Positions 6,924 to 35,243 of a DNA stretch of 35,243 bases are shown piece after piece (within the stretch, counting starts at the first letter, position 1; each line of letters opens with the position of its first letter). The stretch is taken from assembly GCA_025356735.1 (NCBI GenBank), contig JANXRT010000293.1, positions 1-35,243 on the forward strand. Direction: 5' to 3'. The notes beneath the pieces are model-generated. The model saw nothing but the letters and a program-made list of their open reading frames with translations. It was not told where the DNA came from and ran no database searches. The translations under genes and the position numbers were made by a program. This stretch comes from Acetobacteraceae bacterium. Lineage in GTDB: Bacteria; Pseudomonadota; Alphaproteobacteria; Acetobacterales; Acetobacteraceae.

Positions 6924-6932
6924 TTTCTTTCG

Positions 6933-7994
6933 GTGGCAATCGCGGCGCGGGATTTCCGCCAATTGCGGCTCGACGGAATAAGCCGCGATTTCGGGCTGCT
7001 GAACGCGCTCCGGAACGTTTCCCTGACAGTCGGGCGGGGGGAGTTCATCGCGCTGCTCGGCCCGTCGGGCTGCGGCAAGTCGACGGCGCTGAACTGCCTC
7101 GCCGGGCTGCTGACCCTGACCGGGGGCAGCATCTGGCTGGATGACCGGCGCATCGACACGCTGGCGCCGGAAGCGCGCGGCTTCGGCATGGTGTTCCAGA
7201 ATTATGCGTTGTTTCCGCATCTGACGGTGGCGCGCAACATCGCCTTCGGGCTGGAGATGCAGGGCGTTGCCCGGTCCGAGATTTCGCGGCGGGTGGCCGA
7301 GGCGCTGGCGCTGGTGCGGCTGGAGGCGCAGGCGGAGAAGCTGCCGGGGCAGATATCGGGCGGCCAGCAGCAGCGCGTGGCGATCGCGCGCGCCATCGTC
7401 GTCGGGCCGCCGCTCGTGCTGATGGACGAGCCGCTTTCCAACCTCGACGCCAAGCTGCGGCTGGAGATGCGGACCGAGATCCGGCGCATCCACGGGCTGC
7501 TCGGCTGCTCGACGATCTATGTGACCCACGACCAGGACGAGGCGCTGTCGCTCGCCGACCGCATCGTCGTGCTGCGCGATGGCGAGGTGCGCCAGATCGG
7601 CACGCCGGAGGAGTTGTACGCGCGGCCGGCGACATCGGACGTTGCCGAGTTCATGGGTTTTCGCAACATCTTTTCCACATCGTGCGAGGCGGTCGGCAAT
7701 GATTTGTTCGCGCGCATCGGCGGCGCTTTGGTGGCGGGCACGTCGGTGGGGCAGGGCCGGGCGGGACCGGCGATCGCAGCGATCCGGCCGGACGACCTGA
7801 CGCCGCAGCCTGAGGGTCCGATCGCGGCAAGGGTCGAGGCGATCGAGTATCGCGGCCGTGACTTCTTCGGCGTGGCGCGGGCGGTGAGCGGCGAGGAATT
7901 GTATTTCCGCACGGAGCATCGCGCCGGCGTTGGCGAGGCGGTGCGGCTGGGGGCACCTCCCGGCCGGGTGCTGATCTATCCCGGCGCCGCATGA
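6933..7994 (+). CDS. ABC transporter ATP-binding protein (PotA/MalK-type with C-terminal regulatory domain)
   Basis: Walker A GPSGCGKST, signature ISGGQQQRVAIARA, Walker B LVLMDEPLSNLD, H-loop YVTHDQ. GTG start. Confidence 0.9.
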   Translation: MAIAARDFRQLRLDGISRDFGLLNALRNVSLTVGRGEFIALLGPSGCGKSTALNCLAGLLTLTGGSIWLDDRRIDTLAPEARGFGMVFQNYALFPHLTVARNIAFGLEMQGVARSEISRRVAEALALVRLEAQAEKLPGQISGGQQQRVAIARAIVVGPPLVLMDEPLSNLDAKLRLEMRTEIRRIHGLLGCSTIYVTHDQDEALSLADRIVVLRDGEVRQIGTPEELYARPATSDVAEFMGFRNIFSTSCEAVGNDLFARIGGALVAGTSVGQGRAGPAIAAIRPDDLTPQPEGPIAARVEAIEYRGRDFFGVARAVSGEELYFRTEHRAGVGEAVRLGAPPGRVLIYPGAA

Positions 7995-13508: not shown

Positions 13509-15071
13509 ATGGCGGTGAAACCAAGGTGTGCCTGGCGAATGATCTTTCGACGCAGCGCTGGCCTGCTGGCGGCCCTGGTCCTGGCCGGCTGCACGGTGGG
13601 GCCGGATTTCGTGCCGCCCGACAGCGGCTCGCCGGCGGTGCTGACCGACCTCGATGGGCGCCGGACAAGCTTCGGCAAGCCGGCGGCGAGCCAACCGGTG
13701 GCGACGGCGGTCGATCCGGCCTGGTGGGCGCTGTTCAACGATCCGGTGCTGTCCGCCCTCGTCGAGCGGGTTGCCGATCAGAACCTGGATGTCCAGCTCG
13801 CCACATCGCGGCTGGCGGAGTCGCGCGGCCAACTCGGCATCACCAGCGCCTCGCAGTTCCCGCGGCTGAACGGATCGGCCGGATACGTCACGCAGCAGGC
13901 CAGCGGCAAGGGCATCTTCGGCCTGCTTGGCGGGGCGGCGGCCGGTAGCCAGGCGGGCGGCATCCGCGGCTCCCGGCTGCAGCCGTTCGATCTCTACAGC
14001 TATGGCTTCGACGCCTCGTGGGAACTGGATCTGTGGGGGCGGGTGCGCCGATCCATCGAGTCGTCCGATGCGGCGCTGACGGCATCCACCGAGGCGCGGC
14101 GCGATGCGTTGGTCTCGGCAATGGCGGAGGTGGCGCGCGACTACATCCAGCTGCGCGGCGTCCAAGCCAGCCTGGCAATCGCCGCGCGCAACCTGCGCAC
14201 CTCGCAACAGAGCTTCGGGCTGGTCCAGGAACGCGCCACCGGCGGCCTGGTTACCGATCTCGACGTCGCCAACGCCTCGGCCCAGGTCGCCACCATCGAG
14301 GCCGATTTTCCGCGGTTGCAGGCGCAGCAGGCACAGTTGATCAACGCGATCTCGCTGCTGCTCGGCCAGGAGCCGGGTGCCGTCGCCGCCCAGCTGCTGA
14401 CGCCCGCGCCGGTGCCGCCGGTGCCGCCGCGCGTGCCGGTCGGGCTGCCTGGCGAACTCGCCCGCCGCCGTCCCGACATCCGCCAGGCCGAAGCCGATCT
14501 GCATGGCGCCACCGCCGATATCGGTGTCGCGGTGGCCAGCTTCTATCCCAGCGTGACGCTGTCCGGCAGCGTCGGCATCCAGGCGCTGCGGCTGAAGGAT
14601 ATTTCCAACTTCGACGCGCACCAGTACACGCTGGGGCCCTCGCTCAGCGTGCCGATCTTCGATGCTGGCCGGCTCAAGGGCAATCTCGCCTTGCGCACCG
14701 CCCAGCAGCAGACCGCCGCCGTGCGCTACCAGCAGGTCGTGCTGCGATCCTGGCACGAGGTCGATAACGCGCTGACCGCCTACGATACCGAGCAGCGCCG
14801 CCGCGATGCACTGGGGCGCGCCGTCGTGCAGAACCGGCGCGCGTTGGCCCAGGCGCAAACCCGTTATTCCGCGGGGGTGGCGGACTTTCTGTCGGTGCTG
14901 GATGCCCAGCGATCCCTGCTCAGCACCGAGGACGCGCTGGCGCAGAGCACCGCGGCGGTGTCGGGAAATTTGGTTTCGATCTACAAGGCTTTGGGTGGGG
15001 GTTGGGAGACTGCGATGCCGGAGGAGGTAGCGCAGCATGGGACGCTGCCCCAAACCCGGCCCCACCTTTAG
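13509..15071 (+). CDS. Efflux outer-membrane factor lipoprotein, NodT family (TolC-like)
   Basis: Lipobox LVLAGC. PDF motif right after the Cys. The body has the two-repeat OMF pattern (LDVQLA..., FYPSVTLSGS..., IFDAGRLKGN...). Alternative start ATG 13539. Confidence 0.85.
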   Translation: MAVKPRCAWRMIFRRSAGLLAALVLAGCTVGPDFVPPDSGSPAVLTDLDGRRTSFGKPAASQPVATAVDPAWWALFNDPVLSALVERVADQNLDVQLATSRLAESRGQLGITSASQFPRLNGSAGYVTQQASGKGIFGLLGGAAAGSQAGGIRGSRLQPFDLYSYGFDASWELDLWGRVRRSIESSDAALTASTEARRDALVSAMAEVARDYIQLRGVQASLAIAARNLRTSQQSFGLVQERATGGLVTDLDVANASAQVATIEADFPRLQAQQAQLINAISLLLGQEPGAVAAQLLTPAPVPPVPPRVPVGLPGELARRRPDIRQAEADLHGATADIGVAVASFYPSVTLSGSVGIQALRLKDISNFDAHQYTLGPSLSVPIFDAGRLKGNLALRTAQQQTAAVRYQQVVLRSWHEVDNALTAYDTEQRRRDALGRAVVQNRRALAQAQTRYSAGVADFLSVLDAQRSLLSTEDALAQSTAAVSGNLVSIYKALGGGWETAMPEEVAQHGTLPQTRPHL

Positions 15072-19458: not shown

Positions 19459-21720
19459 TTGAGCGCGGTCGGACACAGCCTACCCGATCCGATGTTCGGG
19501 CGCACGGCACCGATCGCCTCGCCGCGCGTCGTGCATCCGGCCGGGCTCGACCGGACATCCGGCCTGTCGCCCGGCGCCGCGTTCCAGGTCCTGCGCCGCC
19601 GCCGCCTTGTCTTCGCGCTGAGCCTGGTGGGAATCCCGGCGCTTGCCTGGATCGCGTTGCAGCAGGCGGTGCCGCGCTATACCGCCGCCGCCATGGTGCT
19701 ATACGAGCCGACCGCCTATGCCGCGCGCGAGCTGCAAAGCGTTCTGCGCGCCGATCCGACGACCGAGCCGGTGATAAGCAGCCAGGCGGAGATCGTGCGC
19801 GGATTGCCGATCGCCGCCCGGGTGGCAGCCGAATTCCATCTTCACGACGATCCAGAATTCAACGCGGCGCTGCGCCGGCCCTCCTGGCTCGCACGGTGGC
19901 TGGACCAGGCGAGGACACTGACGGCGTGGTGGCGGTCGGACGAGCTTCCGGCTTCGAGCGGCCCGGCTTTGAGCAGCGATACACGTGACGAGGTGGAAAC
20001 CGCGGTGCGGGATGCCATTACCGCCGGCACCGCCAAGGCGTCGCGGGTGCTCGAGATCGGGTTCGCCTCGAAAGACCGCCGGCTCGCGGCCGACGCCGCC
20101 AACGCGATCGCGCGGCTGTACATCCAGGATCAAATCGACACCAAGATCGCGGCGGTGCATCGCGCCACCGCGTGGCTCGACAACCGCGTGGTCGAATTGC
20201 GCCGCGACGTGCTCGGCGCCGAGAACCGCGTCGCCGCGTTCCGGGCCGAGCGGGGACTGGTGCGCGGTGTACAGGCCGGGCTCGACACGGAACAGGTCAG
20301 CCGGATCTCCGCCGACCTGATCCAGGCGCGCAACGACGCGGCGCAGGCCGAGGCACGGCTGGATGGGACCCGCCTGGATGGCGCGCGCGGGCGCTCGGGC
20401 GCGGCGTTGCAGGCGGCGGTCGCGCCTAGCGTCGGACCGGCGCGGCTGCACCTGGACCAGCTTTCGGCGCAGCTGCAATCGCTGCGCACCCGGCTTGGGC
20501 CGAACCATCCCGAAACGATCGCGGCGCGCAGCCAGCTTGCCGACCTGCAGCGTTCGGTCGGCGCCGAGATCGGGCGCGCCGCCGCCGCGGGAGAGGCCGA
20601 ACTGCGTGTCACGCGCGGGCGTGTCGCCGGCCTGGAGCAGGTTTTGGCGCGCGCTCAAACGGTCGTCGCGCGTAGCGAACAGGCGCAGGTGGCGCTCAAC
20701 GTCCTGGAACGCGATGCGGAGGCCTTACGCGCCCAGCTCGCGGCGGTGCTGGAGCGCATCCAGGCGACCGTGCGGCAGAGCGCGATCGAGCTGGCGGACG
20801 CACGGCTGATCTCCGCCGCGTTACCGCCGGCTCAGCCCAGCTTTCCGCGGAAAGTGCCGCTGATGGCGGCGGCGTGCGTGTTCGCGGTGCTGTTCGGGTT
20901 GTTTCTGGTCTATCTGACGGAAGTATCCGATGACACTTTTCGAAGTGGCGACGACGTTCGTGCAAGGCTCGGCCTACGTTGCTTCGCGCTGATTCCCGAG
21001 GTCGGCCGCCGGCAGCTTGGCGGCGTGCGGATCGATCAGTACGCGGCGCAGAAGCCGTTGTCGCCGTTCGCCGAGCAGCTGCGCGCGCTGCGGGCGGCGC
21101 TGTGGCTCGGCCCGCACCGGCCGCGGGTCATCGCCATCACCGCGGCACGGCCAGCCGAGGGCAAGACCACCGTGGCGCTGTCGCTCGGCCGGATCGCGGC
21201 ACTGGCAGGCGAGCGCGTCGTGGTGGTGGATTGCGACATCCGCCAGCCGGCGCTCGGCCGCATCCTGCATGCCGACGGCAATCTCGGGCTGGTGGACTGC
21301 CTGCTTGGCCACGGCGTGCTGGCGGAGATCATTTGCCGCGATCCAGTGACCAGCCTCGACTACGTGCCGGCCGGCGCGCCGGAGGCCAACTCGCTCGGGC
21401 TGCTGATGTCGGATGCGATGATCGACGTGCTGGCGGCGTTGCGGGAGCGCTACGACCTCGTGCTGCTGGATGCGCCGCCGGCCTGCGCGATGGCCGATGC
21501 GCGGGTGGTGGCGCGGATGGCCGATGCCACCCTGCTGTGCCTGCGCTGGCGCAGCACGCCGCGCGACGTGGTCCGCCACTCGCTCGAGCTGCTGGCCGAG
21601 GCGCAGGCGAGTTCGGTCGGCGTGGTGCTGACGCGGGTCGATGCGGAGGCGCATCTGCGCTCGGGCTACGCCGACGCCGAAGTCTATCACGCGCGCTACG
21701 GCGGCTATTTCCGTGCGTGA
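19459..21720 (+). CDS. Polysaccharide co-polymerase / BY-tyrosine autokinase (Wzc/ExoP/GumC-like)
   Basis: N-terminal Wzz-like domain with a TM segment, then a long coiled-coil periplasmic region and a second TM segment. The C-terminal P-loop domain has Walker A ARPAEGKTT, A' VVVVDCDIRQP and Walker B DLVLLDAPP. Tyr-rich tail SGYADAEVYHARYGGYFRA. TTG 19459 or ATG 19492 start. Confidence 0.8.
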   Translation: MSAVGHSLPDPMFGRTAPIASPRVVHPAGLDRTSGLSPGAAFQVLRRRRLVFALSLVGIPALAWIALQQAVPRYTAAAMVLYEPTAYAARELQSVLRADPTTEPVISSQAEIVRGLPIAARVAAEFHLHDDPEFNAALRRPSWLARWLDQARTLTAWWRSDELPASSGPALSSDTRDEVETAVRDAITAGTAKASRVLEIGFASKDRRLAADAANAIARLYIQDQIDTKIAAVHRATAWLDNRVVELRRDVLGAENRVAAFRAERGLVRGVQAGLDTEQVSRISADLIQARNDAAQAEARLDGTRLDGARGRSGAALQAAVAPSVGPARLHLDQLSAQLQSLRTRLGPNHPETIAARSQLADLQRSVGAEIGRAAAAGEAELRVTRGRVAGLEQVLARAQTVVARSEQAQVALNVLERDAEALRAQLAAVLERIQATVRQSAIELADARLISAALPPAQPSFPRKVPLMAAACVFAVLFGLFLVYLTEVSDDTFRSGDDVRARLGLRCFALIPEVGRRQLGGVRIDQYAAQKPLSPFAEQLRALRAALWLGPHRPRVIAITAARPAEGKTTVALSLGRIAALAGERVVVVDCDIRQPALGRILHADGNLGLVDCLLGHGVLAEIICRDPVTSLDYVPAGAPEANSLGLLMSDAMIDVLAALRERYDLVLLDAPPACAMADARVVARMADATLLCLRWRSTPRDVVRHSLELLAEAQASSVGVVLTRVDAEAHLRSGYADAEVYHARYGGYFRA

Positions 21721-21748
21721 CCAGATCGGAGCCTCTTGCCGGCAGGTC

Positions 21749-23131
21749 ATGGCACTCGTGCTGTCGGCCGCCCTGCTCGCCTGGCCGGCGGCGTGGAACG
21801 GCTATCCGCTGGTGTTCTCTGACACCGGAACCTATCTGTCGCAGGCGATCCACCATTATCTCGGCTGGGATCGGCCGGCGGTTTACAGCCTGTTCCTGTA
21901 TCCGCTGCACTGGCAGGTCACGCTTTGGCCGGTGATCGCGGTTCAGGCGCTGCTGACCGCGTGGACGCTGCATCTGACCCGGCGCGTGCTGTGGCCGGCG
22001 GCGCCGATCTGGTTCCTGCCGGCGGTCGCGGCGGCGCTCGCGGTGTTCACCTCGCTGCCGTGGCATGTCGCGCAAATCATGCCGGACGTGTTCACGCCGC
22101 TGCTGGCGCTGGCGATGGCGCTGCTGGTGCTGGCGCCGGCGCGGATGCGGCGAGGCGACCTTGTCGGGCTTGGGCTGTTCGCGACATTCATGATCGCCGC
22201 GCATCAGAGCCACGTGCCGCTGGCGGTCGCGCTGCTGGCTGCGCTGATGGCGTCGCGGCGGTTTCTTGAGCAACGAGACGGGTTCGGCAGGCGCCGATGG
22301 GTTGCCGTGATGCCGCCTCTGCTCGCCTGCGTGATCCTGGTTGCGATGAACATGGCGGGGCACGGGCGGATGTCGCTGTCGCCCTACGGCAATGTCTTCC
22401 TGCTCGCCCGGCTGATCGAGGACGGTCCGGGCATGACGGCGCTGCGGCAGAACTGCCCCGCCGCCGGCTGGCGGCTTTGCGACCAGCTCGACCGGCTGCC
22501 GGTGGCGTCCGACGATTTCCTGTGGCGCGACGACAGTGCCCTGGCTCACGCCGGTGGCGCCAAGCTGGTCTCGGGCGAGGCCAACGCCATATTGGCCGCC
22601 GCCTGGCGGGCGGACCCCGCCGGCATCGTCGGCGGGTTCTTCGTGCGGGCCGCGCAGCAGGCGGCGTCCTTCGCCACCGGCGACGGGCTGGAAGCCTGGC
22701 CGCGCACCGTCACGCCGTGGATAGCGCGGGATTTCCCTGCCCTCGAAGCGGATGCCTATGCGGCGTCGCGTCAGACCGCGGGTCGGATGGCGGTGCCAGA
22801 CTGGCTAGGCCGGCTGCATGTCGGCGTCGCCATCGGCGGCATCGCCGGCTGCCTGGCGCTGCTGGCGCGTCGGCGGCGGGACCTCGCGTCCGGCTTCGCC
22901 GCCGCGGCGCTGGTCGCGGTGCTGGCCAACGCCGCCATTACCGGCGGGCTGTCGGGGCCGCACCGGCGCTATCAGAGCCGCGTCGCCTGGCTGCCGGCCT
23001 TCGTCGTCCTGCTCGCCGTGCCGCCGATGTGGCCCGGCCGGGCACCGGCGCGAGAGACCGCCAGGGTGTGGCTTGCCGCCATCTCCAACCCGCCCCGGCG
23101 CCTCGACAGCCTTGTGCCCGGCGAGGGCTGA
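21749..23131 (+). CDS. Uncharacterised polytopic membrane protein inside the EPS cluster (possible GT-C-like transferase or polymerase)
   Basis: In-frame ATG at 21749 in ORF 21641..23131. About 6-7 N-terminal TM helices, with an acidic first-loop segment VFSDTGTY. A soluble region of about 150 aa follows, then about 2 C-terminal TM helices. I recognise no family. Its stop overlaps the flippase start (ATGA-type, 1 nt). Confidence 0.55.
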   Translation: MALVLSAALLAWPAAWNGYPLVFSDTGTYLSQAIHHYLGWDRPAVYSLFLYPLHWQVTLWPVIAVQALLTAWTLHLTRRVLWPAAPIWFLPAVAAALAVFTSLPWHVAQIMPDVFTPLLALAMALLVLAPARMRRGDLVGLGLFATFMIAAHQSHVPLAVALLAALMASRRFLEQRDGFGRRRWVAVMPPLLACVILVAMNMAGHGRMSLSPYGNVFLLARLIEDGPGMTALRQNCPAAGWRLCDQLDRLPVASDDFLWRDDSALAHAGGAKLVSGEANAILAAAWRADPAGIVGGFFVRAAQQAASFATGDGLEAWPRTVTPWIARDFPALEADAYAASRQTAGRMAVPDWLGRLHVGVAIGGIAGCLALLARRRRDLASGFAAAALVAVLANAAITGGLSGPHRRYQSRVAWLPAFVVLLAVPPMWPGRAPARETARVWLAAISNPPRRLDSLVPGEG

Positions 23132-24552
23132 TGCGGTCGTTCGGCAAGCCCGCGTGGTCGAGCCCGGTGTTCTGGTCTGGGCTTGAGGCGGTGGTCTCCG
23201 GCGGGCTGTCGCTGCTGTCGGTGTTCGTCGTCGCGGCCATCATCGGCCCGGCCGAGCTTGGCGTCGGCGCCGCGGCGGTGGCATCGCATATCCTGCTGTG
23301 GGTGACGGTCAACGCGCTGTTCGCCGACGCCATCGTGCAGCGCGCCGACCTGCCGGCCGGGGTGGTCTCCAGCGCGTTCTGGGCCGGCATCGGGGTCGGA
23401 GGCGGCGGGGCGGCGGTACAGCTCGCTTGCGGCCTGCTGCTCGCCGCCTCGTTCGCCGATGCGCGGCTGTGGCCGATGTCGGCGCTGCTCGCGACGGCTT
23501 TGCCGGTGGTCGGCGCGGCCGGCATCGTGCAGGGATTGCTGACCCGGCAGGGCCGCTACCGCGCTCTGGCGCTGCGCGCGATCGTTGGCCAGGGGTTCGG
23601 CACGCTGGCCGGGATCGCGCTGGCTCGGCATGGCGCCGGCAGCTGGGCGCTGGTGGCGCAGCAATGGGTGGTCTCGGTCGGCGGCGCCGCGACCCTGCTG
23701 CTAGGCAGCGGCTTCAGACCCGGTTGGCGCTGCCACCGAAATGATATTTCGACGTTGCTGCGCGTCGGCCTGCCGCTGACCGCCAGCACGCTGCTGATGC
23801 AGGGCCGCTACCGGCTGTTCGCGCTCGGCATCGGCGCCCTCGCCGGGCCGGCGGCGCTCGGCCAGGTGCATCTGGCATTCCGCCTGGTGGACAGCGCGCG
23901 CGAGCTGATGATGACCGCGCTGTGGCGGCTGATGCTGCCTGGCATGGCGCGCTGCCAGCACGATCGGGCGGCGCTGCTCGGTTGCGTCGACCGCCAGCTC
24001 GGCCGTCTCGGCTGGGTCGTGTTTCCGGTTTGCGGCGGCATGGCCCTGGCGATGGTGCCGATGGTGACGGCGCTGCTGCCGCCGGTGTGGCTGCCGTCGG
24101 GCGAGGCCGCCTTGCCGCTGATCGGCCTGATGGCCTTCATCCTCATCGGCTTTCCGGGCGGCGTCGCGCTGGTCGCCGGCGGCCAGCCGATGTTCGCGCT
24201 GTTCACCAACGTCGCCGGATTGATCGCCGTGCTGGCCGGGCTGCTTCTGTTCCAGCCCCGCAATCCGATCGAGGCGGTGCTGGTGTGGACCGGCGCGCAG
24301 CTTCTGACCAACCCCTACAACCTGGCGATGAACGCGCGCCGGCTGGCGGTCGGCTGGCTGCGGCCGATGTGCGCGGGCCTGCCGGCGCTGCTCACGACCG
24401 GCGCCGCCGTGCTGGCGGCGTTCGCGCTGGCCGGCAATGGGGCGGAGCCAGTGCGGTTGCTGGTCGGCCGGGGCCTGATCGCGGCTGCCGTGTTCGTGCC
24501 GGCGGCGTGGTGGCTGCGTACCCGCCGTCCGGCCTGGAGCCTTGCGCTTTGA
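23131..24552 (+). CDS. Oligosaccharide/polysaccharide flippase (Wzx-like, MOP superfamily)
   Basis: In-frame ATG at 23131 in ORF 22297..24552. 473 aa with 12 or more hydrophobic segments. The overall pattern matches the Polysacc_synt flippase families. It is translationally coupled on both sides. Confidence 0.7.
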   Translation: MRSFGKPAWSSPVFWSGLEAVVSGGLSLLSVFVVAAIIGPAELGVGAAAVASHILLWVTVNALFADAIVQRADLPAGVVSSAFWAGIGVGGGGAAVQLACGLLLAASFADARLWPMSALLATALPVVGAAGIVQGLLTRQGRYRALALRAIVGQGFGTLAGIALARHGAGSWALVAQQWVVSVGGAATLLLGSGFRPGWRCHRNDISTLLRVGLPLTASTLLMQGRYRLFALGIGALAGPAALGQVHLAFRLVDSARELMMTALWRLMLPGMARCQHDRAALLGCVDRQLGRLGWVVFPVCGGMALAMVPMVTALLPPVWLPSGEAALPLIGLMAFILIGFPGGVALVAGGQPMFALFTNVAGLIAVLAGLLLFQPRNPIEAVLVWTGAQLLTNPYNLAMNARRLAVGWLRPMCAGLPALLTTGAAVLAAFALAGNGAEPVRLLVGRGLIAAAVFVPAAWWLRTRRPAWSLAL

Positions 24553-25376
24553 CCAGAACGCGCGCGGCGTCGGGCGTGCGCCTGCTGGGAACCGACTTCC
24601 TCGATGCCGGGCTGGAAGCGGTCGCCGGGCGGCTTTGCGCGCGGCCGGCCGACGCGCCGTTCGGCTATGTCGTGACCCTCAACGCCGATCATCTGGTGCG
24701 GCTCGCGCGCCGGCCCGAGTTGCGGCCGCTCTATGATCGGGCGGCGCTGCGGCTGCTGGATTCGCGCGTCGTGGCGCTGCTGTGCCGGTTGCTGCGGATG
24801 CCGGCGCCGGCGGTCGCGACCGGCAGCGACCTGACCGAGCGGATACTCGCCGGCGGCCTCGACGCGGGCGAGAAGGTGACGATCATCGGCCTGGCGGAAG
24901 CCTGGCTGCCGGCGCTGGTCGCGCGCTGCGGCCTGGCGCCCCCGGCCCATTTCAATCCGCAGATGGGCTTCGAGCACGATCCGGCGGCGATGGCCGAAGC
25001 GGTGGCCTTCGTGCTGGCCCACCCGGCCCGGTTCGTTTTCCTGGCGGTCGGCTCGCCGCGCCAGGAGAAGCTGGCGGCGGCGATCGAGGCGACCGGCCAG
25101 GCGACCGGGACCGGGCTGTGCATCGGCGCCGCGCTCGAGTTCCTGGCCGGGGCATCACGCCGTGCGCCGGGCTGGATGCGGGTCGCCGGGCTGGAATGGC
25201 TGCACCGGTTGGCCGGCGATCCGCGGCGGCTGGCGCGGCGCTACTTGCTTGACAGCCCGGCGGTGCTGCCGATGCTGCTGGCGGAAAAGTTTTCGATTGG
25301 CAGGCGCGCCAGCACCTCAGCGCGCAACCTGGCGCCGGCGTGGCCGCGATGGGCGGTGTCGTTGCGGCGGAGATAG
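24549..25376 (+). CDS. WecB/TagA/CpsF-family glycosyltransferase (GT26)
   Basis: Characteristic segments VVTLNADHLV, FVFLAVGSPRQEKL, GIGAALEFLAG and PGWMRVAGLEWLHRLAGDPRRLARRYL. TTG 24549 overlaps the flippase stop. Alternative start GTG 24576. Confidence 0.75.
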   Translation: MTRTRAASGVRLLGTDFLDAGLEAVAGRLCARPADAPFGYVVTLNADHLVRLARRPELRPLYDRAALRLLDSRVVALLCRLLRMPAPAVATGSDLTERILAGGLDAGEKVTIIGLAEAWLPALVARCGLAPPAHFNPQMGFEHDPAAMAEAVAFVLAHPARFVFLAVGSPRQEKLAAAIEATGQATGTGLCIGAALEFLAGASRRAPGWMRVAGLEWLHRLAGDPRRLARRYLLDSPAVLPMLLAEKFSIGRRASTSARNLAPAWPRWAVSLRRR

Positions 25377-26305
25377 TCCCTGGCCCGCGGCGGTAGGACC
25401 CGCCTCGCGGCGACGGAGGCGGGTTGCCGCGACATCCGGACCGCTTCCGCAATTGCGCGGACGGAGGTTCCGAAAAGCCCGTGGCGCGCGCCCTTGAACA
25501 GGTAGGCGGCGATGCGCGGCAGCAGCTTCGGCCACGGCATCGACCATTTTCGGGCGATGTAAAGGCGGTTGCGGACGAAATAGAACCAGCGCCGGTCGGA
25601 CCAGGTCACCCGGCCCTCTGCGCTGGCCCGGTGGCGCACCGCGATATCGCCGCGATAAAGAATGCGCCAGCCGCGGGCGATGGCGCGGAGCGAGAAGTCG
25701 AACTCTTCCCAGCAGAAGAACAGCGCCGGATCGTAGCCGCCGGCATCGTCCCAGGCGCTGCGGCGGATGGCGTGTCCGGCGCCGACGAACGTCGGAACAT
25801 CGAATTGGCCGGCGGCACGTGGCAGCAGGGATTTCGGAAAACCCCAGGATGTCAGGTCGTCGTCTCCGCTTGCGTGCACCAGGATGCGAAAGGCAATCGC
25901 GGCCACATCCGGCTCCGCGTCGATCGCGGCCACCGCGCGCGCGGCCGTGGCGGCGTCGAAAAATTCGGCGTCGTTGTCGAGTGCGACGATCACCCTGCCA
26001 TGGCCGACGGCGCTGGCGAGATTGCGGCCGCCGGCGACTCCGAGGTTGACGCCGGAGGCGAACAGGCCGGCGTCGGCACGACCAAGCATGGCGTCGGCCA
26101 ACCGAGAAAGGTTGGCCGGCGTGGAGCCCTGGTCGATGATCGTCAGGTGCCACCGGCAGCCGGCCTGGCGGAACACCGAGGCGATCGCCTGCTCGGTCTC
26201 CTCGATGCGGTCGAGCGCCAGCAGGATGATGTCGGCGTCGTAGGGCTGCGACGGCGGATGCACGGCGCCGGCGCGGTGAAGCCCCGGCGGGACGGCGCCG
26301 GTCAA
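25241..26305 (-). CDS. Family-2 glycosyltransferase
   Basis: GT-A N-terminal fold: DADIILLALDRIEETEQAIASV...IIDQGS...NLGVAGGRN...VALDNDAEF (DxD). The candidate TTG start at 26305 overlaps the upstream stop (TTGA). The ATG at 26368 would overlap that gene by 67 nt. Confidence 0.75.
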   Translation of the reverse strand: MTGAVPPGLHRAGAVHPPSQPYDADIILLALDRIEETEQAIASVFRQAGCRWHLTIIDQGSTPANLSRLADAMLGRADAGLFASGVNLGVAGGRNLASAVGHGRVIVALDNDAEFFDAATAARAVAAIDAEPDVAAIAFRILVHASGDDDLTSWGFPKSLLPRAAGQFDVPTFVGAGHAIRRSAWDDAGGYDPALFFCWEEFDFSLRAIARGWRILYRGDIAVRHRASAEGRVTWSDRRWFYFVRNRLYIARKWSMPWPKLLPRIAAYLFKGARHGLFGTSVRAIAEAVRMSRQPASVAARRVLPPRARDYLRRNDTAHRGHAGARLRAEVLARLPIENFSASSIGSTAGLSSK

Positions 26306-27723
26306 TACGCGTTGGTCCTGCGTATCACCACGATCGCGGTGCGCAGCAGGACCTTGAGGTCGAGCCACAGCGACCAGCGCTCAATGTATTCGAGGTCGCT
26401 GTCGACGCGCCGTGCCAGCCGGTCCTCGGTGTCGGTCGGGCCGCGCAGACCGCGGACCTGCGCCAGCCCGGTCAGCCCTGGGCGCACCCGGTGGCGGGAG
26501 GCGTAGTCGGCGACGACCTCGTCGAACAGGCGTCCGCCGGCGCGGGTGCCGGGCGCGTGCGGCCGCGGCCCGACGATCGACATGTCGCCGGCCAGGGCGT
26601 TGAAGATCTGCGGCAGCTCGTCGAGCGAGGTGCGGCGCAGGAAGAAGCCGACGCGGGTGATCCGGGGATCGTCGTGAACCGCCTGCCGGCTGCCGTCGGC
26701 ATCGGCGAAGCGGTGCTGCATGGTGCGGAACTTGAGCATCTCAAAGTCGCGGTTGTTGAACCCGGTGCGGCGCTGGCGGAACAAGGCGGGGCCGGGGCTG
26801 TCGAGGCGGACCGTGACCGCGACGATCAGCATCGGGATGGCGAACACGATCAGCGCCAGCACGCCGAGGAAGACATCCTCGGCGCGCTTGACCAGGCTGG
26901 TCCAGCCCGATAGCGGCGGCTCGGTGAGGTCGATCAGCGCCGGCGGGCGGTCGCGGTCTCGGTGGTGAAGGTCGCGACGTTCAAAGTCGGGCGCCAGGCG
27001 GACGCGCACCGGGTACTCGGCCAGCCGCCGGATGAGTTCGAGCACCGGCGAGCGGGCCGACCAGGGCAAGGCGATGATGACCTGGTCCACGGCGCCGTCG
27101 CGGATCAGCTCCAGCAGCCGTGGCAGCCCGCCGAGATAAGGCAGCCCATCCGCGGGTGGCTCCGAGGACTGGTCGTCGATGTAGCCGAGCCATTCCGGCG
27201 CGATGTCGTCGCCGCAGCCGCCCACAAGCAGCAGACCGGCGGCGACGGTGCCCCGGCCGACCAGCACGGTGCGCATCGCGTAGCGTCGGGCGGTGTGGCC
27301 GGCCAGGAGACGGGCGACGCCGCGGCGGGTTGCGGCCACGACGCCCAGCGCGATGACGCCGCCGCCGCCCAGGGCCAGCGGCGAAATGGCCTGGGTCCGG
27401 AACACCAGCAGGATCGCCGACATGGCGGCGAATGCCGCGCAGGTGCCGATGATCCCGGCACGCAGGAATGGCGCGCGGCGCAGGATCAGCTTCGGCGAGT
27501 AGCCCCCCGCGGTGGAGATCATGGTCAGCGCGAGGGAGGTGGTGAGCAGCACGGTTTCGCCCTCCATCGAGGCATCAATGGAGGAGCCGGAAAGCCGGCA
27601 GGCGAGTAGTGTGACGGCGGCAAGCCCGGCCGCCTCGATCATGGCGATGGCGGCGATCATGCCCAGCATCGTTGCCGGCTCGGCGGGGTGGCTGCGAAAA
27701 CTATTTCTGCCGGGCTGGAACAT
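26302..27723 (-). CDS. Polyprenyl-phosphate hexose-1-phosphate transferase (priming phosphoglycosyl transferase, WbaP/ExoY type)
   Basis: N-terminal TM bundle plus a central domain. The C-terminal bacterial sugar-transferase domain contains LFRQRRTGFNNRDFEMLKFRTM, DDPRITRVGFFLRRTSLDELPQIFN, MSIVGPRPH and RPGLTGLAQV. Confidence 0.85.
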   Translation of the reverse strand: MFQPGRNSFRSHPAEPATMLGMIAAIAMIEAAGLAAVTLLACRLSGSSIDASMEGETVLLTTSLALTMISTAGGYSPKLILRRAPFLRAGIIGTCAAFAAMSAILLVFRTQAISPLALGGGGVIALGVVAATRRGVARLLAGHTARRYAMRTVLVGRGTVAAGLLLVGGCGDDIAPEWLGYIDDQSSEPPADGLPYLGGLPRLLELIRDGAVDQVIIALPWSARSPVLELIRRLAEYPVRVRLAPDFERRDLHHRDRDRPPALIDLTEPPLSGWTSLVKRAEDVFLGVLALIVFAIPMLIVAVTVRLDSPGPALFRQRRTGFNNRDFEMLKFRTMQHRFADADGSRQAVHDDPRITRVGFFLRRTSLDELPQIFNALAGDMSIVGPRPHAPGTRAGGRLFDEVVADYASRHRVRPGLTGLAQVRGLRGPTDTEDRLARRVDSDLEYIERWSLWLDLKVLLRTAIVVIRRTNAY

Positions 27724-31314: not shown

Positions 31315-31369
31315 CCCCGGGGCGTTACCCCAATGCTTATGGGTGGGCCGGGGTTTGAGGCAGAGCCCC
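31315..31369. repeat. REP-like GC-rich palindromic element (expanded copy) spanning the stop codon and last codons of the ABC exporter gene
   Basis: Read on the minus strand it is GGGGCTCTGCCTCAAACCCCGGCCCACCCATAAGCATTGGGGTAACGCCCCGGGG. The minus-strand copy at 16053-16012 is TTGGGGCTCTGCCCCAATCCCCGCCGGGGGTAGCACCCCCGG. The flanking modules are shared. This copy has about 15 extra nt that contain the TAA stop (31337-31339). Confidence 0.5.
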
Positions 31370-33535
31370 GTGCTGCTGCGGCTCACTGGCAACCCGCCGC
31401 CTGCCCGCGCCCGCCGGCCATAGCGGCACCACCCGATCCGCCATCTCGATGGTCGAGCGGCGATGGGCGACGATGATGCGCGCGATCGGCAGCGAGCGGA
31501 TCGCCTCGTTGATGGTGCGTTCGTTGTCGTCGTCGAGATGGCTGGTGGCCTCGTCCAGCAGCAGTATGCGCGGGCCGCGGAACAGCGCGCGGGCCAGCAC
31601 GACGCGCTGGATCTGGCCGCCCGAAAGCGAACTGCCCATGTCGCCGACCAGCGTCTCGTAACCCATCGGCATGCGCAGGATTTCCTCGTGGATCGCCGCC
31701 AACCGGGCCGCGTGCTCGATCAGCTCGCGGTCGAAGCTCTGGCTGAAGGCGGAAATATTCTCGGCGATCGAGCCGGCGAACAGCCTGTCGTCCTGCAGCA
31801 CGCAGCCGATCTGGCAGCGGTAGTTCTCGAGACCCATGGCGCGCACCGGCACGCCGTCGAGCATGACCGTGCCCTCCGACGGCTGCAGCAGCCCCGCCAG
31901 TATCTTCAGCAGGGTGGTCTTGCCGGCGCCCGACGGCCCGACGATCGCCACGCACTCACCAGGTGCGACGTCGAAGTCGAAATCGGCGAGCACCGGCGCC
32001 TCGTTGTCGCCGTAGCGGTAGCCCACTCCCCGCGCGGCGAGCGTCGCGCGGGCGCGGCGGGGTGCGGCCGCGCCGTGGGGCACCAGCGTCGTGGCGGCGC
32101 CGGTTTCCTCGGGCTCGGCCAGGGCGATGTCGGCGATGCGCTCGCCATGCAGGGTCAACAGCTTGAGGTGTATGATGGTGTCCATCAGGGTGGCGAGCCG
32201 CTGCGAGAACTGGTCCTTGTAGGCGAGGAAGGCGACCAGCATGCCGATCGTCAACGAGCCGCCCATCACCGCGCGGGCGCCGAAATAGATGATCAGGATC
32301 CGATCGAGACCGAACAGGATGGTGTTGGCGGTCTTGTAGAGCAGGTCGAGCTTGCTGACGCGCAACTCGGCGCTGACATGGTCGACCAGGTAGTTGTTCC
32401 AGGCCGCCTGGCGGCGGTCGCCGATGACCAGCGCCTTGATGCTCGGCATTCCCCGAAGCGTCTCGATGAAATGCGAGTTCTCGCGCGCGCCATAGATGAT
32501 CGCCTCCTCGCTGGCGGCGCGATAGACCTTGTAGGCGACGCTGCGCAGGAGGCCGTAGATCGCCATGATGGTAATGGCGAGGCCGGCCAGGAACGGGTTG
32601 TAGAACCACATCACGATGACCAATCCGATCGACATCACGCCATCCACGAGGCCGGACACCGGGCCGGTGGTCAGGGTGCGCTGGATCGTTTCGAGCGAGG
32701 CGAAGCGCGAGGCGAGGTCGCCGACGTGGCGGCGCTCGAAGAAGCCGAGCGGCAGGCGGAGCAGATGGCGGAACAGGCTCATCTTCCATTGCAGCGTCAG
32801 CTGGGCACCGGCGGCCATGATCGACCAGGAACGCACGAAATCGGTCAGGGCGCGGAAGCCGAGCAGCAGGCCGAGGCCCAACGCGATCAGCACCAGCAGG
32901 TTGGCGTCGTCGGAGACGATGACGTCGTCGAGCACGAGCTGAAAGCCGATCGGCGTGACGATGACGATGCTTTCGAGGAAGAAAGACAAGGTCAGGATGC
33001 GCAGGGCCGCGCCGGCGAAGCCCTGGGTGCGGCGCACCATGTCGAAGATGCCAACCCGGGCGCGTTCGGTGCGGCGCTCGAACGTCTGGCTCGGCCAGGC
33101 CTCGAGTGCGATGCCGGTGAAGCGTTCGGACGCCTCGGCAAGCGGGATCTTACGCGCGCCGAGCGCTGGGTCGAGGATGGTGAGGCTGCGGCGGCCGACG
33201 CCGGTCAGCACGACGAAGTGGCTGTGATCCCAGTGCAGGATGCAGGGCAGGCGCAATTCCGCCAGGTTCGAGATGTCCGCCTTGAGGGCGCGGGTGGATA
33301 GCCGCATCTGTGCGGCGACACGGACGATGTCGTGCAGGGTCATGCCCTTGAGCGAGACGTCGTAATGGCTGCGCAGCGCCGGCAGGTCGATGCGATAGCC
33401 GTAACGGCCGCCGATCATCGCGAGGCAGGCCAGGCCGCATTCAGCGGCCTCGGTTTGCAGCACCAGGGGCGTGCCCCGGGCGCGCAGCAACGCGGTGTCG
33501 AGCCGGTGGGTCGCACTTCTGCCCGCGTCGCTCAC
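31337..33535 (-). CDS. Peptidase-C39-domain ABC exporter (CvaB/bacteriocin-processing type)
   Basis: C39 domain has Gln/Cys in LQTEAAECGLACLAMIGG, His in HSHFVVL and Asp in ILDPALG. A 6-TM domain follows. NBD: Walker A GPSGAGKTT, signature LSGGQIQRVVLARA, Walker B ILLLDEATSHLD, H-loop IIVAHR. It is colinear with E. coli CvaB from memory. The GTG at 33535 overlaps the HlyD stop (GTGA). Alternative start ATG 33580. Confidence 0.9.
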   Translation of the reverse strand: MSDAGRSATHRLDTALLRARGTPLVLQTEAAECGLACLAMIGGRYGYRIDLPALRSHYDVSLKGMTLHDIVRVAAQMRLSTRALKADISNLAELRLPCILHWDHSHFVVLTGVGRRSLTILDPALGARKIPLAEASERFTGIALEAWPSQTFERRTERARVGIFDMVRRTQGFAGAALRILTLSFFLESIVIVTPIGFQLVLDDVIVSDDANLLVLIALGLGLLLGFRALTDFVRSWSIMAAGAQLTLQWKMSLFRHLLRLPLGFFERRHVGDLASRFASLETIQRTLTTGPVSGLVDGVMSIGLVIVMWFYNPFLAGLAITIMAIYGLLRSVAYKVYRAASEEAIIYGARENSHFIETLRGMPSIKALVIGDRRQAAWNNYLVDHVSAELRVSKLDLLYKTANTILFGLDRILIIYFGARAVMGGSLTIGMLVAFLAYKDQFSQRLATLMDTIIHLKLLTLHGERIADIALAEPEETGAATTLVPHGAAAPRRARATLAARGVGYRYGDNEAPVLADFDFDVAPGECVAIVGPSGAGKTTLLKILAGLLQPSEGTVMLDGVPVRAMGLENYRCQIGCVLQDDRLFAGSIAENISAFSQSFDRELIEHAARLAAIHEEILRMPMGYETLVGDMGSSLSGGQIQRVVLARALFRGPRILLLDEATSHLDDDNERTINEAIRSLPIARIIVAHRRSTIEMADRVVPLWPAGAGRRRVASEPQQHGALPQTPAHP

Positions 33536-34809
33536 AGGCTTTGCGCCCCGTGCAGGCTGTAAAGCGGCTCCAGTATCCATTGATAGAGCGGACGCGCCTC
33601 CAGCAGCACGAGCGCATCGACCTGCATGCTGGCGCGCAGCTTTTCGGGCCGCCCGAAGGCTGTGACGTCCTGGCGGTCCGGCGTCACCACCAGCCGGTAG
33701 AAGGTTTTTCCGGTGTCGGCCGGCGCGGCGCCGGGCACCAGGGCGCGGAGCTCGTCAGCCTGCAGGGCGGCGTGCGAGACCTCGGTCAGGGTGCCCCAGT
33801 ACTGGCCAAACTTCTGATAGGGGAAGGCGGTGTAGCGCAGCCGGACGCGCTGGCCGGGATGGACGAAGCCGATCGAGTTGCTGGGGGCTAGCAGCTCGGC
33901 TTGCATCTGCTGCTGGTCGGGCACGATGGTCAGCACGCGCGCGCCGGCGGCGACGAGCTGGCCCGGGTGGCTGGCGAGCGCGGTTACCGTGCCGGCGGCG
34001 GTGGCGTGGATTTCCAGCGAGCGGCGCGCCTCGGCCGCGGCGACCTGCTGCTCGATCTCGAGCATCTTGGCGCGCATCTCGCCGATCTCGTTGTCCGTCT
34101 GTATGCGGGTGGTCTGCTGTTGGGACCGGGCCTCGATCAGCTGCGCCTGGACGCGCAGAGCAACGCTGCGCAGCTCCTCCAGCTCGTCCTTGGCGCGCAT
34201 CCAGGTTGCCTGCTGGTTGTTGCGCTCGTTCATGTTGCCGATGCCGGTCTGCACGTAACGGTTGTAGTCGGCTAGGTTCTTCGCGAGGCGGGCGGCGAAC
34301 TCGTCCTTGACGCCGAGCTGGACCTGCGTCTGGCGAGCCTGTTCCTGGAGGTTGTCGATGCGGCTTTGCTGTATCGCCTCCTGCTGCTCCTGATATCGTT
34401 GCTTGAGCGCGATCTGCTCGGTGAGCAGAACGTGGTGGCTGGCGAGCGACCGCAGGATCTGCTGCTGGGTGTCGCCATTGCTGGTCGATGTTTCGAGGTT
34501 GAGGACGTAGAGCAAGGTGCCCGCGACGACGTGCGCGTTGTCCTGCACGGCGACCGCCTCGATGCGGCCGGATGCCGGCGCGGTGGCCTGGATCAGGCCG
34601 GTGGTCGGCAGCACGACGCCATGCAGTTCGACCCGGCGGGCGTAGCCGCCGTAGAGGAGGATTGCCAGCGCGGCGGCGACGGCGACCACCGAGGCAAAGC
34701 TCAGCACGGTCACGGGGGCGCCCAGGGCGAGGGTGTGGCGGCCTAGCCATGCGGCCTGGCGGGCATCGAGCGACTCTGGCCGGAACAGTTCTTGCCGGGT
34801 GACGCTCAT
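33532..34809 (-). CDS. HlyD-family membrane fusion/adaptor protein (CvaA-like)
   Basis: The ATG at 34809 gives MSVTRQELFRPESLDARQAAWLGRHTLAL. This parallels the CvaA N-terminus MFRQDALENRKMKWQGRAILL. It has one TM segment, a long coiled-coil region (Q/E/A/R-rich) and a C-terminal beta-barrel region. 425 aa. Confidence 0.85.
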   Translation of the reverse strand: MSVTRQELFRPESLDARQAAWLGRHTLALGAPVTVLSFASVVAVAAALAILLYGGYARRVELHGVVLPTTGLIQATAPASGRIEAVAVQDNAHVVAGTLLYVLNLETSTSNGDTQQQILRSLASHHVLLTEQIALKQRYQEQQEAIQQSRIDNLQEQARQTQVQLGVKDEFAARLAKNLADYNRYVQTGIGNMNERNNQQATWMRAKDELEELRSVALRVQAQLIEARSQQQTTRIQTDNEIGEMRAKMLEIEQQVAAAEARRSLEIHATAAGTVTALASHPGQLVAAGARVLTIVPDQQQMQAELLAPSNSIGFVHPGQRVRLRYTAFPYQKFGQYWGTLTEVSHAALQADELRALVPGAAPADTGKTFYRLVVTPDRQDVTAFGRPEKLRASMQVDALVLLEARPLYQWILEPLYSLHGAQSL

Positions 34810-34852
34810 TCGGGAAGCCCAGTCATCGTTGCGGCGTCGTGTCTGGCCGTGA

Positions 34853-34880
34853 GATCCCCCGGCCATTCGGCCGGGGGATC
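34853..34880 (-). promoter_or_regulatory. Perfect 12-bp stem / 4-nt loop hairpin between the peptide gene and the exporter genes (candidate partial terminator or processing/stability element)
   Basis: GATCCCCCGGCC-ATTC-GGCCGGGGGATC. It lies 19 nt after the peptide stop and 44 nt before the HlyD start. There is no U-tract on the transcribed (minus) strand. Confidence 0.5.
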
Positions 34881-34898
34881 TTTCGCAGAGGCGAGAGG

Positions 34899-35108
34899 CT
34901 AGAGCGAGAGGTTGATGCCGTTCCCGTTGCCGATGTTCACGGTGTTGCCATTCGCACCTTCTTTGCCGCTGTAGTTGCCGCCCTTGATCACCACTTCGTT
35001 GTTGTTTCCGTTGTAGCTGCCAATCGAATACTGCCGATTGTCATTGCCGCGACGGCCGCCGGAGACCAGATCGAGTTCGCTGGTGCTCAGTTCGACGAGT
35101 TGGTTCAT
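34899..35108 (-). CDS. Double-glycine-leader peptide precursor (class II microcin/bacteriocin-like), 18-aa leader plus 51-aa Asn/Gly-rich core
   Basis: MNQLVELSTSELDLVSGG|RRGNDNRQYSIGSYNGNNNEVVIKGGNYSGKEGANGNTVNIGNGNGINLSL. The leader fits the L-S-x-x-E-L-x-x-(I/V)-x-G-G consensus. GGGAGA SD at 35115-35120, 6 nt from the ATG. It lies directly upstream of, and co-oriented with, the C39-ABC/HlyD exporter genes. Confidence 0.8.
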   Translation of the reverse strand: MNQLVELSTSELDLVSGGRRGNDNRQYSIGSYNGNNNEVVIKGGNYSGKEGANGNTVNIGNGNGINLSL

Positions 35109-35243
35109 GGTTATTCTCCCATTTTTTTAGTTGATGAAAACGCCGCGAAAAAGGGCTACGTACAACAATATACGCTGAAACGATTGAGCATATTATTGGA
35201 CGTATTCCTCGTCCCCGCAAGCGAACCGTAACGACATGGGTGC
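35109..35243 (-). promoter_or_regulatory. Upstream region of the peptide gene (SD plus probable promoter), AT-enriched
   Basis: My hand count is 61 G+C in 135 nt, and about 38% G+C in the 92 nt nearest the gene. SD GGGAGA. TATATT (reverse complement of 35167-35172) is a possible -10. I see no convincing -35. The window ends here. Confidence 0.35.

Follow-up and report, generated by a model that had tools for sequence, protein, structure and literature searches.

The stretch of DNA analysed here (the window) comprises positions 1 to 35,243 of contig JANXRT010000293.1 from an Acetobacteraceae bacterium (assembly GCA_025356735.1). At its very end, on the reverse strand, lies a small gene encoding a 69-residue peptide that consists of a double-glycine leader and a core rich in Asn and Gly. 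The gene is followed by those of an HlyD-type adaptor protein and of a peptidase-containing ATP-binding cassette (ABC) transporter (PCAT), and it is preceded, beyond the end of the window, by the gene of a large Asn/Gly repeat protein built from the same kind of unit as the core. The features are collected in Table 1; contigs and loci other than the window are denoted by L numbers, and proteins found in searches by P numbers.

Table 1. Features of the peptide cluster and of two loci with a second repeat (window coordinates unless a locus is named)
Feature	Coordinates	Strand	Basis
Peptide gene, 69 aa	34899..35108 (including stop codon)	-	open reading frame list and translation
Leader, residues 1-18, MNQLVELSTSELDLVSGG, predicted cut after Gly18	35055..35108	-	consensus fit
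Core, residues 19-69 and stop, 51-aa mature peptide	34899..35054	-	composition
Repeat unit 1, residues 27-41, YSIGSYNGNNNEVVI	34986..35030	-	unit hidden Markov model (HMM), i-E 4.3e-5
Repeat unit 2, residues 45-69, NYSGKEGANGNTVNIGNGNGINLSL	34902..34976	-	unit HMM, i-E 2.3e-6
Shine-Dalgarno-like GGGAGA, 6 nt ahead of ATG	35115..35120	-	read from sequence
Start of A+T-rich spacer (about 500 bp in total)	35109..35243	-	45% G+C here, 40-45% on L002
G+C-rich hairpin, 12-13 bp, between peptide and adaptor genes	34853..34880	-	-42 kcal/mol, z -3.3
HlyD-type membrane-fusion (adaptor) protein, 425 aa	33532..34809	-	Pfam HlyD_3 and HlyD_D23
PCAT (C39 peptidase, ABC membrane and ATPase domains)	31337..33580	-	Pfam Peptidase_C39 3.6e-34, ABC_membrane, ABC_tran
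L012, second-repeat architecture	about 9654; 6870-7855	+; -	
L024, second-repeat architecture	108-1187; 3965-4150, 4166-4351, 4662-4856	-; +, +, +	

The peptide reading frame is a real gene for a double-glycine-leader peptide. Its translation, MNQLVELSTSELDLVSGG followed by RRGNDNRQYSIGSYNGNNNEVVIKGGNYSGKEGANGNTVNIGNGNGINLSL, agrees exactly with the sequence quoted in the first-pass annotation of this DNA, the peptide is called with identical sequence on three independent metagenome contigs, and homologues hold the equivalent position in L004, L006, L008, L210 and L211. Both the gene and the export of its product are supported by the consensus leader, by the adaptor and PCAT genes directly 3′, by the ribosome-binding site ahead of the start and by a conserved hairpin behind the stop. 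The composition of the core is as the first-pass annotation had described it: on recount there are 13 Asn, 11 Gly, five basic and three acidic residues and no Cys, there is no long hydrophobic helix (the longest hydrophobic run being three residues), and the C-terminus, GNGNGINLSL, is not the Ser-rich tail of siderophore-type peptides. The core also holds four Asn-Gly dipeptides. Asn accounts for 25% of its residues against 2.0% in 11 other window genes (binomial P about 2e-11), and Gly for 21.6% against 9.3% (binomial P 0.007). The G+C content of the gene is 55.7%, compared with 68% for the window. Because G+C at third codon positions stays at 0.79 (0.88-0.93 in the neighbours) and that at first and second positions drops to 0.51 and 0.37, the low value derives mainly from amino-acid composition, and the earlier attribution to AAC/AAT codons was essentially right. 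No sigma-70 consensus promoter was found in the A+T-rich spacer upstream. A 130-residue open reading frame (34839..35231, forward strand) runs antisense across the entire peptide gene; it has neither family nor conservation evidence and is treated as a mechanical reading frame of the kind typical of G+C-rich DNA.

The leader agrees with the double-glycine consensus of Gram-negative bacteria, ELX3E(I/L)X2(I/V)XG(G/A) (PMC3140520), with ELSTSELDLVSGG at residues 6-18 ending in GG, and is conserved in 11 family members. In the AlphaFold2 model of the peptide, a helix at leader residues 9-15 is the sole confident part, with a predicted local distance difference test score (pLDDT) of about 75. The adaptor gene starts 89 bp past the peptide stop; its product is 69% identical to the adaptor of L004 and 48% identical to that of L006, and its matches to the NCBIfam models type_I_hlyD and NHLP-bacteriocin HlyD lie below the respective cut-offs. 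The PCAT aligns over its full length to the structures of PCAT1 (4ry2) and ComA (8hf4), and its translation contains ECGLACL, HSHFVVL and ILDPA, which we take to be the Cys, His and Asp catalytic motifs of an active C39 domain. It matches plasmid pTAV3 of Paracoccus versutus at 70.7%, and the call of the same gene on L001 begins 15 codons later. Because a double-glycine leader adjoins an HlyD-type adaptor and a C39-peptidase ABC exporter, we infer that the peptide is cut after Gly18 and exported, and it is very probably the cargo of this PCAT. TolC is often encoded away from the exporter cluster, and an OEP/TolC-family gene 16 kb off (13509..15071, forward strand), outside the cluster, is a possible distant outer-membrane partner.

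The hairpin between the peptide and adaptor genes has counterparts of 10-13 bp at the equivalent place in L004 (3054-3079), L210 (275-304), L211 (846-871), L006 and L008 (in the last two just past the peptide stops); position is kept and sequence is not. A U-run (UUUUU) follows the hairpin in L210, the only locus with one. The window hairpin is likely an attenuator or transcript stabiliser, and its conservation behind the stop codon suggests that peptide transcript is made in excess of transporter transcript.

Only 135 bp of the window remain upstream of the peptide gene, and other contigs bear on what lies beyond them. Two of them, L001 and L003, are 100% identical to the window, come from other sequencing runs and end at exactly its last base. 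The shared breakpoint (35243 in the window, base 1 of L001 and L003, about 1756 of L002) falls inside the A+T-rich spacer and suggests a drop in coverage or strain variation. L002 shares 1322 of 1324 bases with the window (99.85%) and reads past this point: beyond the peptide gene and the roughly 500-bp spacer it contains the 3′ part of a large Asn/Gly repeat-protein gene, whose full-length product is P0004 (575 residues). P0004 is composed of five modules, each consisting of an A unit (h-x-F-x-S-h-x-I-x-V-x-N-S-G-N-N-D-G-N-G-N-x-V-x-I-G-N-A-N-G-I) and a B unit (G-S-Y/F/H-D-G-N-G-N-x-V-x-I-G-N-G-N-G-V/I-x-h-x-h), with 10-12 repeat units in total, and its C-terminus, ..GSFDGNGNLAQIGNGNGVSLYV, is close to that of the peptide, ..GANGNTVNIGNGNGINLSL. 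Among 5.8 billion protein clusters its relatives are P0005, P0006 and P0007, at 45-29% identity.

The unit shared by the core and the large protein is about 28 residues long (h-x-h-x-N-S-G-N-x-D-G-N-G-N-x-V-x-I-G-N-G-N-G-V-x-h-x-h), and the core holds two copies. The first-pass annotation had seen two imperfect repeats in the peptide itself. Aligning the core with itself is not enough to establish them, as the score of 30 is not above chance (26.4 +/- 4.6; 231 of 1000 composition-preserving shuffles reach it); the repeats are nevertheless real, since an HMM built from 19 units of the large proteins only, with no peptide included, finds both, and homologues bear them out. Unit 1 matches P0004 residues 104-121 (IIGSYNGNENTVVIGAGN) at 13 of 18 positions by eye, and unit 2, which is the C-terminal unit common to the whole peptide family, is 62% identical to GSYDGNGNLVGIGNGNGINLFF of the neighbour (BLASTP). 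The peptides and all four large proteins share a conserved C-terminal motif, G-N/S-G-N/D-G-I/V-x-h. By the unit HMM each large protein has 10-12 units and each of eight close peptides (those of the window, L004 and L006, the two of L008, and P0010-P0012) has one or two; among the divergent peptides P0013 and P0014 are marginal and P0015 has none. In Smith-Waterman alignment the core scores 83 against P0004, compared with 48.3 +/- 6.3 for composition-preserving shuffles (z 5.5, reached by 0 of 2000), and the alignment places core residues 11-51 on one full A+B module (residues 391-447 of P0004). All eight family cores score above composition against the four large proteins (z 3.0-10.6). With two units in the core and 10-12 in P0004, the peptide is in effect a small, leader-tagged version of a single module of its neighbour, and from these alignments the two are in all likelihood paralogous.

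The pairing is conserved. A large repeat protein, one or more peptides, an adaptor and a PCAT occur together in five of the five loci with readable flanks (window/L002, L004, L211, L006/L007 and L008), and the position of the peptide gene immediately before the transporter genes is conserved. P0005, P0006 and P0007 each adjoin one or two double-glycine-leader peptides, an adaptor and a PCAT (L004, L006/L007, L008); these peptides have the leader VELxxxELDLVGG, as in the window, and cores ending in G-N-H/Y-N/D-G-N-G-N-x-V-x-I-G-N/S-G-N/D-G-I/V-x-h. In L211 a 490-bp spacer separates the family member from the C-terminus of its large repeat protein, ..GSYNGNNNLVSIGNGNGVSILA*. A profile search with the peptides added six further metagenomic members, among them that of L211. 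Searches with the window peptide alone, against the 5.8 billion clusters (single-sequence) and against 1.84 billion representatives (phmmer), returned the peptide itself, a leader-only match to P0003 and a spurious repeat match to P0002; a peptide scan of representative genome contigs gave nothing that could be confirmed, and no plasmid matched the peptide in tblastn. A hand-made pattern for the leader DNA picked up 120 loci with diverse, unrelated cores. Matches to the window at the DNA level are all from Alphaproteobacteria (for example glpD, 74% to Azospirillum), and the DNA probably comes from a soil member of this class that has not been cultured.

This conservation bears on two alternatives. 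The gene might be a non-functional relic, either a fragment of the large gene fused to a leader or a chance reading frame in G+C-rich DNA, and the antisense frame does show how easily open reading frames form here; moreover, the third peptide gene of L024 (see below) is frameshifted. Yet at least six diverged loci keep the leader, ribosome-binding site, unbroken reading frame, C-terminal motif and hairpin, and the place directly ahead of the transporter genes is conserved as well, which makes a relic extremely unlikely. The peptide might instead be the precursor of a ribosomally synthesised and post-translationally modified peptide (RiPP), its Asn, Gly or Ser residues being modified by enzymes encoded elsewhere. 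Weak leader matches (GRASP_targ_2, E 0.067, and the tail of a Nif11-type leader) and a luciferase-like monooxygenase and other enzymes 2-6 kb off fit such a precursor, which we nonetheless consider very improbable: only the large protein, adaptor and PCAT are common to the loci, no modifying enzyme is conserved across them, and the core is free of Cys and poor in Ser and Thr.

We tentatively propose, at somewhat less than an even chance, that the peptide is secreted and works with the large repeat protein as its partner, be it as seed, cap or adaptor, a role suggested by the conserved pairing. In helical form, the 18-residue leader would bind to the C39 domain of the PCAT, whose gene is the second one downstream. 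After cleavage behind Gly18, the 51-residue core would leave the cell by way of the transporter, the adaptor and an outer-membrane channel. Each unit of the core would form a short beta-prone strand, a GNxDGNGN turn, a second strand, a GNGNG turn and a third strand. Outside the cell the peptide would then partner the large repeat protein, so as to seed, extend, cap or bridge a strand-rich assembly at the surface or in the matrix; both this extracellular co-assembly and the export of the large protein are inferred steps. The first-pass annotation had allowed that the peptide may not be a toxin at all, and the conserved presence beside it of a large protein made of the same unit strengthens that suggestion. 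As a partner, the peptide would follow a logic that resembles that of CsgB and CsgA in curli, or of EbfG in Synechococcus.

Several observations weigh against a secreted partner. A comparison of the eight family cores with the four large proteins gave no sign of co-evolution, since the peptides stood no closer to the large protein beside them than to the rest. The large gene of L006 and L008 runs divergently from the peptide gene, with which it is not co-transcribed. The family is small, with about a dozen peptides and four large-protein clusters among the 5.8 billion, all of them metagenomic. The Asn/Gly large proteins show no convincing Sec signal, double-glycine leader or known sorting signal, and their export is for that reason unproven. 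AlphaFold2 lends no structural support: the large protein, modelled from a four-sequence alignment, has a pLDDT of 27, and the peptide has 52 overall and less than 50 in the core. Finally, clusters of PCAT and adaptor are the standard export route for bacteriocins.

The last point leads to the chief rival explanation, in which the peptide is a narrow-spectrum, unmodified, class II microcin-like bacteriocin with a new Asn/Gly core, exported by the PCAT to kill competitors. The large repeat protein would then confer immunity, as a decoy or sponge that binds the peptide by way of the common units, or mimic a receptor, or simply be the source from which the core evolved. A PCAT, an HlyD-type adaptor and a double-glycine leader make up the canonical microcin export set (PMC13188072). 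The distribution is patchy and rare and the flank A+T-rich, the cores in the cargo slot of relatives vary widely, which an arms race would predict, and the absence of an export signal on the large proteins would suit an intracellular immunity role. The class II microcins MccV, MccL, MccN and MccAB1 share with the window peptide a double-glycine leader of 15-18 residues, an adjacent C39-peptidase ABC transporter and HlyD-type adaptor, small size and a Gly-rich core. The window peptide differs from them in its 25% Asn, in having its unit in common with a large neighbour, and in lacking a Cys pair, a Ser tail and a recognisable immunity gene. In keeping with the first-pass annotation, which saw no likeness to membrane-inserting class IIa microcins, class IIa was rejected for want of a hydrophobic or Gly/Ala membrane-active region and of disulfide Cys, and the peptide probably does not insert into a target membrane as those microcins do. 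Class IIb was likewise rejected, as the C-terminus is not Ser-rich and the cluster has no glycosyltransferase or enterobactin-linking genes.

A further argument for a bacteriocin is the score of the peptide against the NCBIfam model NF038167, 'CTB family bacteriocin' (30.6 bits, E 2.8e-7, residues 2-56), which is just below the curated cut-off of 32 bits. This score is largely driven by the leader, because ten double-glycine-leader peptides with unrelated cores reach 16-27 bits and the other peptides of the family, at 12.9-20 bits, match through the leader alone; membership of the CTB family was rejected on this ground and on the score. Three family members carry a weak precomputed match to the corresponding Pfam entry (PF28158, 'CTB'). 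The CTB family is itself uncharacterised and putative, and its leader is closely similar to that of the window peptide; in a comparison that covered the NF038167 model and the control peptides, the cores may still be distantly related. A search of the literature on the definition of CTB and on Asn-rich solenoid repeats of type I secretion systems found nothing relevant.

Against a classical toxin stand the core itself, in which hydrophobic and amphipathic segments, Cys and a siderophore-type tail are all absent, and the want of an immunity gene: no small membrane-protein reading frame resembling one is conserved in or beside the cluster spacers of L002, L004, L006 and L008. We know of no precedent for a 575-residue repeat protein as immunity factor, and the version of the large protein with a PEP-CTERM tail in L012 and L024 (described below) points to a surface protein instead. 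On balance we regard a bacteriocin as rather unlikely.

Exported double-glycine-leader peptides also act as pheromones in Gram-positive bacteria, where PCATs export them, and the peptide could be a secreted signal that reports cell density and controls the gene of the large repeat protein or nearby polysaccharide genes. ComC/ComA structures are among the matches of the PCAT, regulators lie nearby in some loci (LuxR-type in L004, a response regulator in L212, a two-component pair on Paracoccus pTAV3), and the long A+T-rich spacer upstream looks regulatory. Against this, the cluster has no conserved sensor kinase or regulator, it is not obvious why a signal should copy the repeat unit of a structural protein, and a low-complexity core of 51 residues is atypical of pheromones. 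We regard a pheromone as improbable.

To return to the proposed secreted partner, several known assembly systems invite comparison. The core is tied to no characterised peptide family: Pfam, NCBIfam and Protein Data Bank (PDB) sequence searches yield none for the core, the PDB searches gave no relative of the large protein either, and Pfam searches with the peptide core (E<=10) and the four large proteins (E<=1) gave no curlin, RTX, hexapeptide or YadA-head match. The resemblance to curlin units that the same annotation had suggested does not extend beyond composition. In Smith-Waterman comparison with E. coli CsgA the core reaches z 1.75 and the unit z 0.2, and with no match to Pfam Curlin_rpt (PF07012, Sx5QxGxGNxAx3Q) the curlin repeat was rejected. 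What would be shared with curli (CsgB/CsgA) and Fap (FapB/FapC) is the logic by which a minor secreted protein carrying the unit of the major protein templates assembly, and curli-type repeats are likewise strand-turn-strand units rich in Asn, Gln and Gly. The present system differs from curli in that its predicted export is of the PCAT or type I secretion kind and not by Sec and CsgG, and in a far more extreme size ratio, 1-2 units against 10-12.

RTX proteins and other type I secretion substrates resemble the large protein in their short Gly/Asn/Asp repeats running to the C-terminus, in an adjacent HlyD/HlyB-like pair and in the absence of a Sec signal. They differ in that the window transporter has an intact catalytic C39 domain, whereas HlyB-type transporters have an inactive C39-like one, and in that the peptide uses an N-terminal leader. 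The RTX beta-roll (PF00353) was rejected, there being no HemolysinCabind match and the unit not fitting GGxGxDxUx by inspection. The turn of the A unit, N-x-D-G-N-G-N-x-h (e.g. SGNNDGNGNxV), in P0004-P0007 is loosely like a DxDxDG calcium-binding loop; the window peptide holds a single Asp, and this likeness may concern the large proteins only.

The best functional precedent for a secreted partner is EbfG. In the EbfG1-4/PteB system of Synechococcus elongatus PCC 7942, small GG-motif proteins build the biofilm matrix, and EbfG1-3 are amyloid-prone (PMC4997328, PMC9981879). As is predicted for the window peptide, these small proteins with a GG secretion motif are exported by a transporter with a C39 peptidase, and their role is in the extracellular matrix or at the surface, not as antibiotics. 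Compared by description, they differ in their hot-spot motif, which is A-phi-N-I-G/S and not GNGNG, and in belonging to another phylum; the EbfG papers mention no large paralogous repeat partner (PMC4997328, PMC9981879). MccAB1 and MccE492 are self-assembling microcins and so provide a precedent for assembling cargos with double-glycine leaders (PMC13188072). The strand-turn pattern of the unit and its Asn/Gly turns make the beta-solenoid or arcade fold suggested in the first-pass annotation plausible; the AlphaFold2 model of the core, at a pLDDT below 50, lends it no support and shows only a tentative hairpin at residues 56-58 and 66-68.

A similar architecture is found with a second, unrelated repeat. 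A scan of representative genomes by adaptor alignment found 80 loci, the nearest of them (42-54% identity) in uncultured Alphaproteobacteria including a Stellaceae metagenome-assembled genome (MAG), and the GNGNG unit occurs in none of these 80, which indicates that the species of the window is absent from the GTDB representatives. Two of the loci, L012 and L024 from alphaproteobacterial MAGs, lie upstream of adaptors 45-48% identical to that of the window and encode double-glycine-leader peptides with cores ending ..TYITNLVDNSVNVRF, ..QQNSVDNSVHITGP or ..APTTIIQNGVDNSLHIGM, ends that also read ..NLVDNSVNVRF or ..NSVDNSVHITGP. Each peptide set adjoins a large protein with a Sec signal, about seven ESAPTTIIxNLVDNSVNx repeats and a PEP-CTERM tail, and peptide and large protein are similar at z 5.9-10 (0 of 500 shuffles). 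A leader-tagged mini-copy of the neighbour's repeat has thus arisen at least twice. The L012 and L024 large proteins resemble the surface proteins of the PEP-CTERM/exosortase system, with a Sec signal and a C-terminus of VPEP, hydrophobic stretch and RRR, in contrast to the Asn/Gly large proteins of the window type, which have no PEP-CTERM. The PEP-CTERM character of this second repeat type lends loose support to the proposed secreted partner. The pairing of a PEP-CTERM protein with a double-glycine-leader mini-peptide was not described in the literature searched. The third peptide gene of L024 is frameshifted, with the leader in one frame and a repeat-like core (..TVTITSAPTTIIQNGVDNSLHIGM) in another, which is either a sequencing error of the MAG or real. 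As a general design, one can imagine two-part extracellular assemblies in which the exporter secretes a mini-peptide of one or two units that seeds, caps or cross-links a large surface array, an extrapolation that we find doubtful.

The system is thus of a known type, a double-glycine peptide with a PCAT, with a new and uncharacterised core family, and the pairing of the mini-peptide with a paralogous large repeat protein is a new conserved architecture. Double-glycine peptides beside PCAT exporters are routinely annotated as bacteriocins. If the peptide is indeed a secreted partner, the roles of PCAT cargos would widen, beside the precedents of EbfG and MccAB1; soil Alphaproteobacteria would prove to have an Asn/Gly repeat protein of a new kind at the surface or in the matrix, and a simple two-gene model for templated assembly of repeat proteins would be at hand. 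Were the two-part assembly true, double-glycine exporters would gain a structural role in Alphaproteobacteria beyond bacteriocins and pheromones. If the peptide is a toxin instead, its Cys-free, non-hydrophobic, Asn-rich core implies an action unlike that of known microcins, and the large paralogue could be a new type of immunity factor.

The searches also brought up other double-glycine cargos. P0003 (481 residues) looks like a multi-core precursor, with about ten concatenated double-glycine leaders (..ELSEEDLEAIVGG..), each followed by a short Cys core, ..C(T/P)PxxCGxNHNETL... In four loci (L100 at 989, L150 at 5409, L156 at 3963 and L187 at 7056) MQTLTATGFGTRELSMAELDLVSGG is followed by WN and a stop, that is, a double-glycine leader with a two-residue core. 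A 45-residue core, DLKEVHFRPDYKEPTVLYDDGINIRTTGLFHSNVGYDSPFTPIPA, recurs behind the same type of leader in soil metagenomes (L098, L116, L129, L135, L158 and L182), and a second recurrent core family reads ..GGLVNxxLxxxNxxxL...VGAIIQxLGGGAAIxQ. On pTAV3 of Paracoccus versutus (L214, 9365-9559, reverse strand; WP_036750542.1) the cargo slot holds a Pro-rich double-glycine-leader peptide annotated as hypothetical (..RIAGGG followed by LDGVPPPEQRPRRPIVPPQRPWPRF..), which precedes an adaptor and a PCAT and has the two-component regulator pair alongside. In the window itself, at a distance of about 4-7 kb from the peptide cluster, an exopolysaccharide-type cluster (19459-27723) encodes a GumC/ExoP-like AAA_31 protein, a Polysacc_synt flippase, a family-2 glycosyltransferase and a Bac_transf priming transferase and gives a loose context for a role at the surface or in the matrix.

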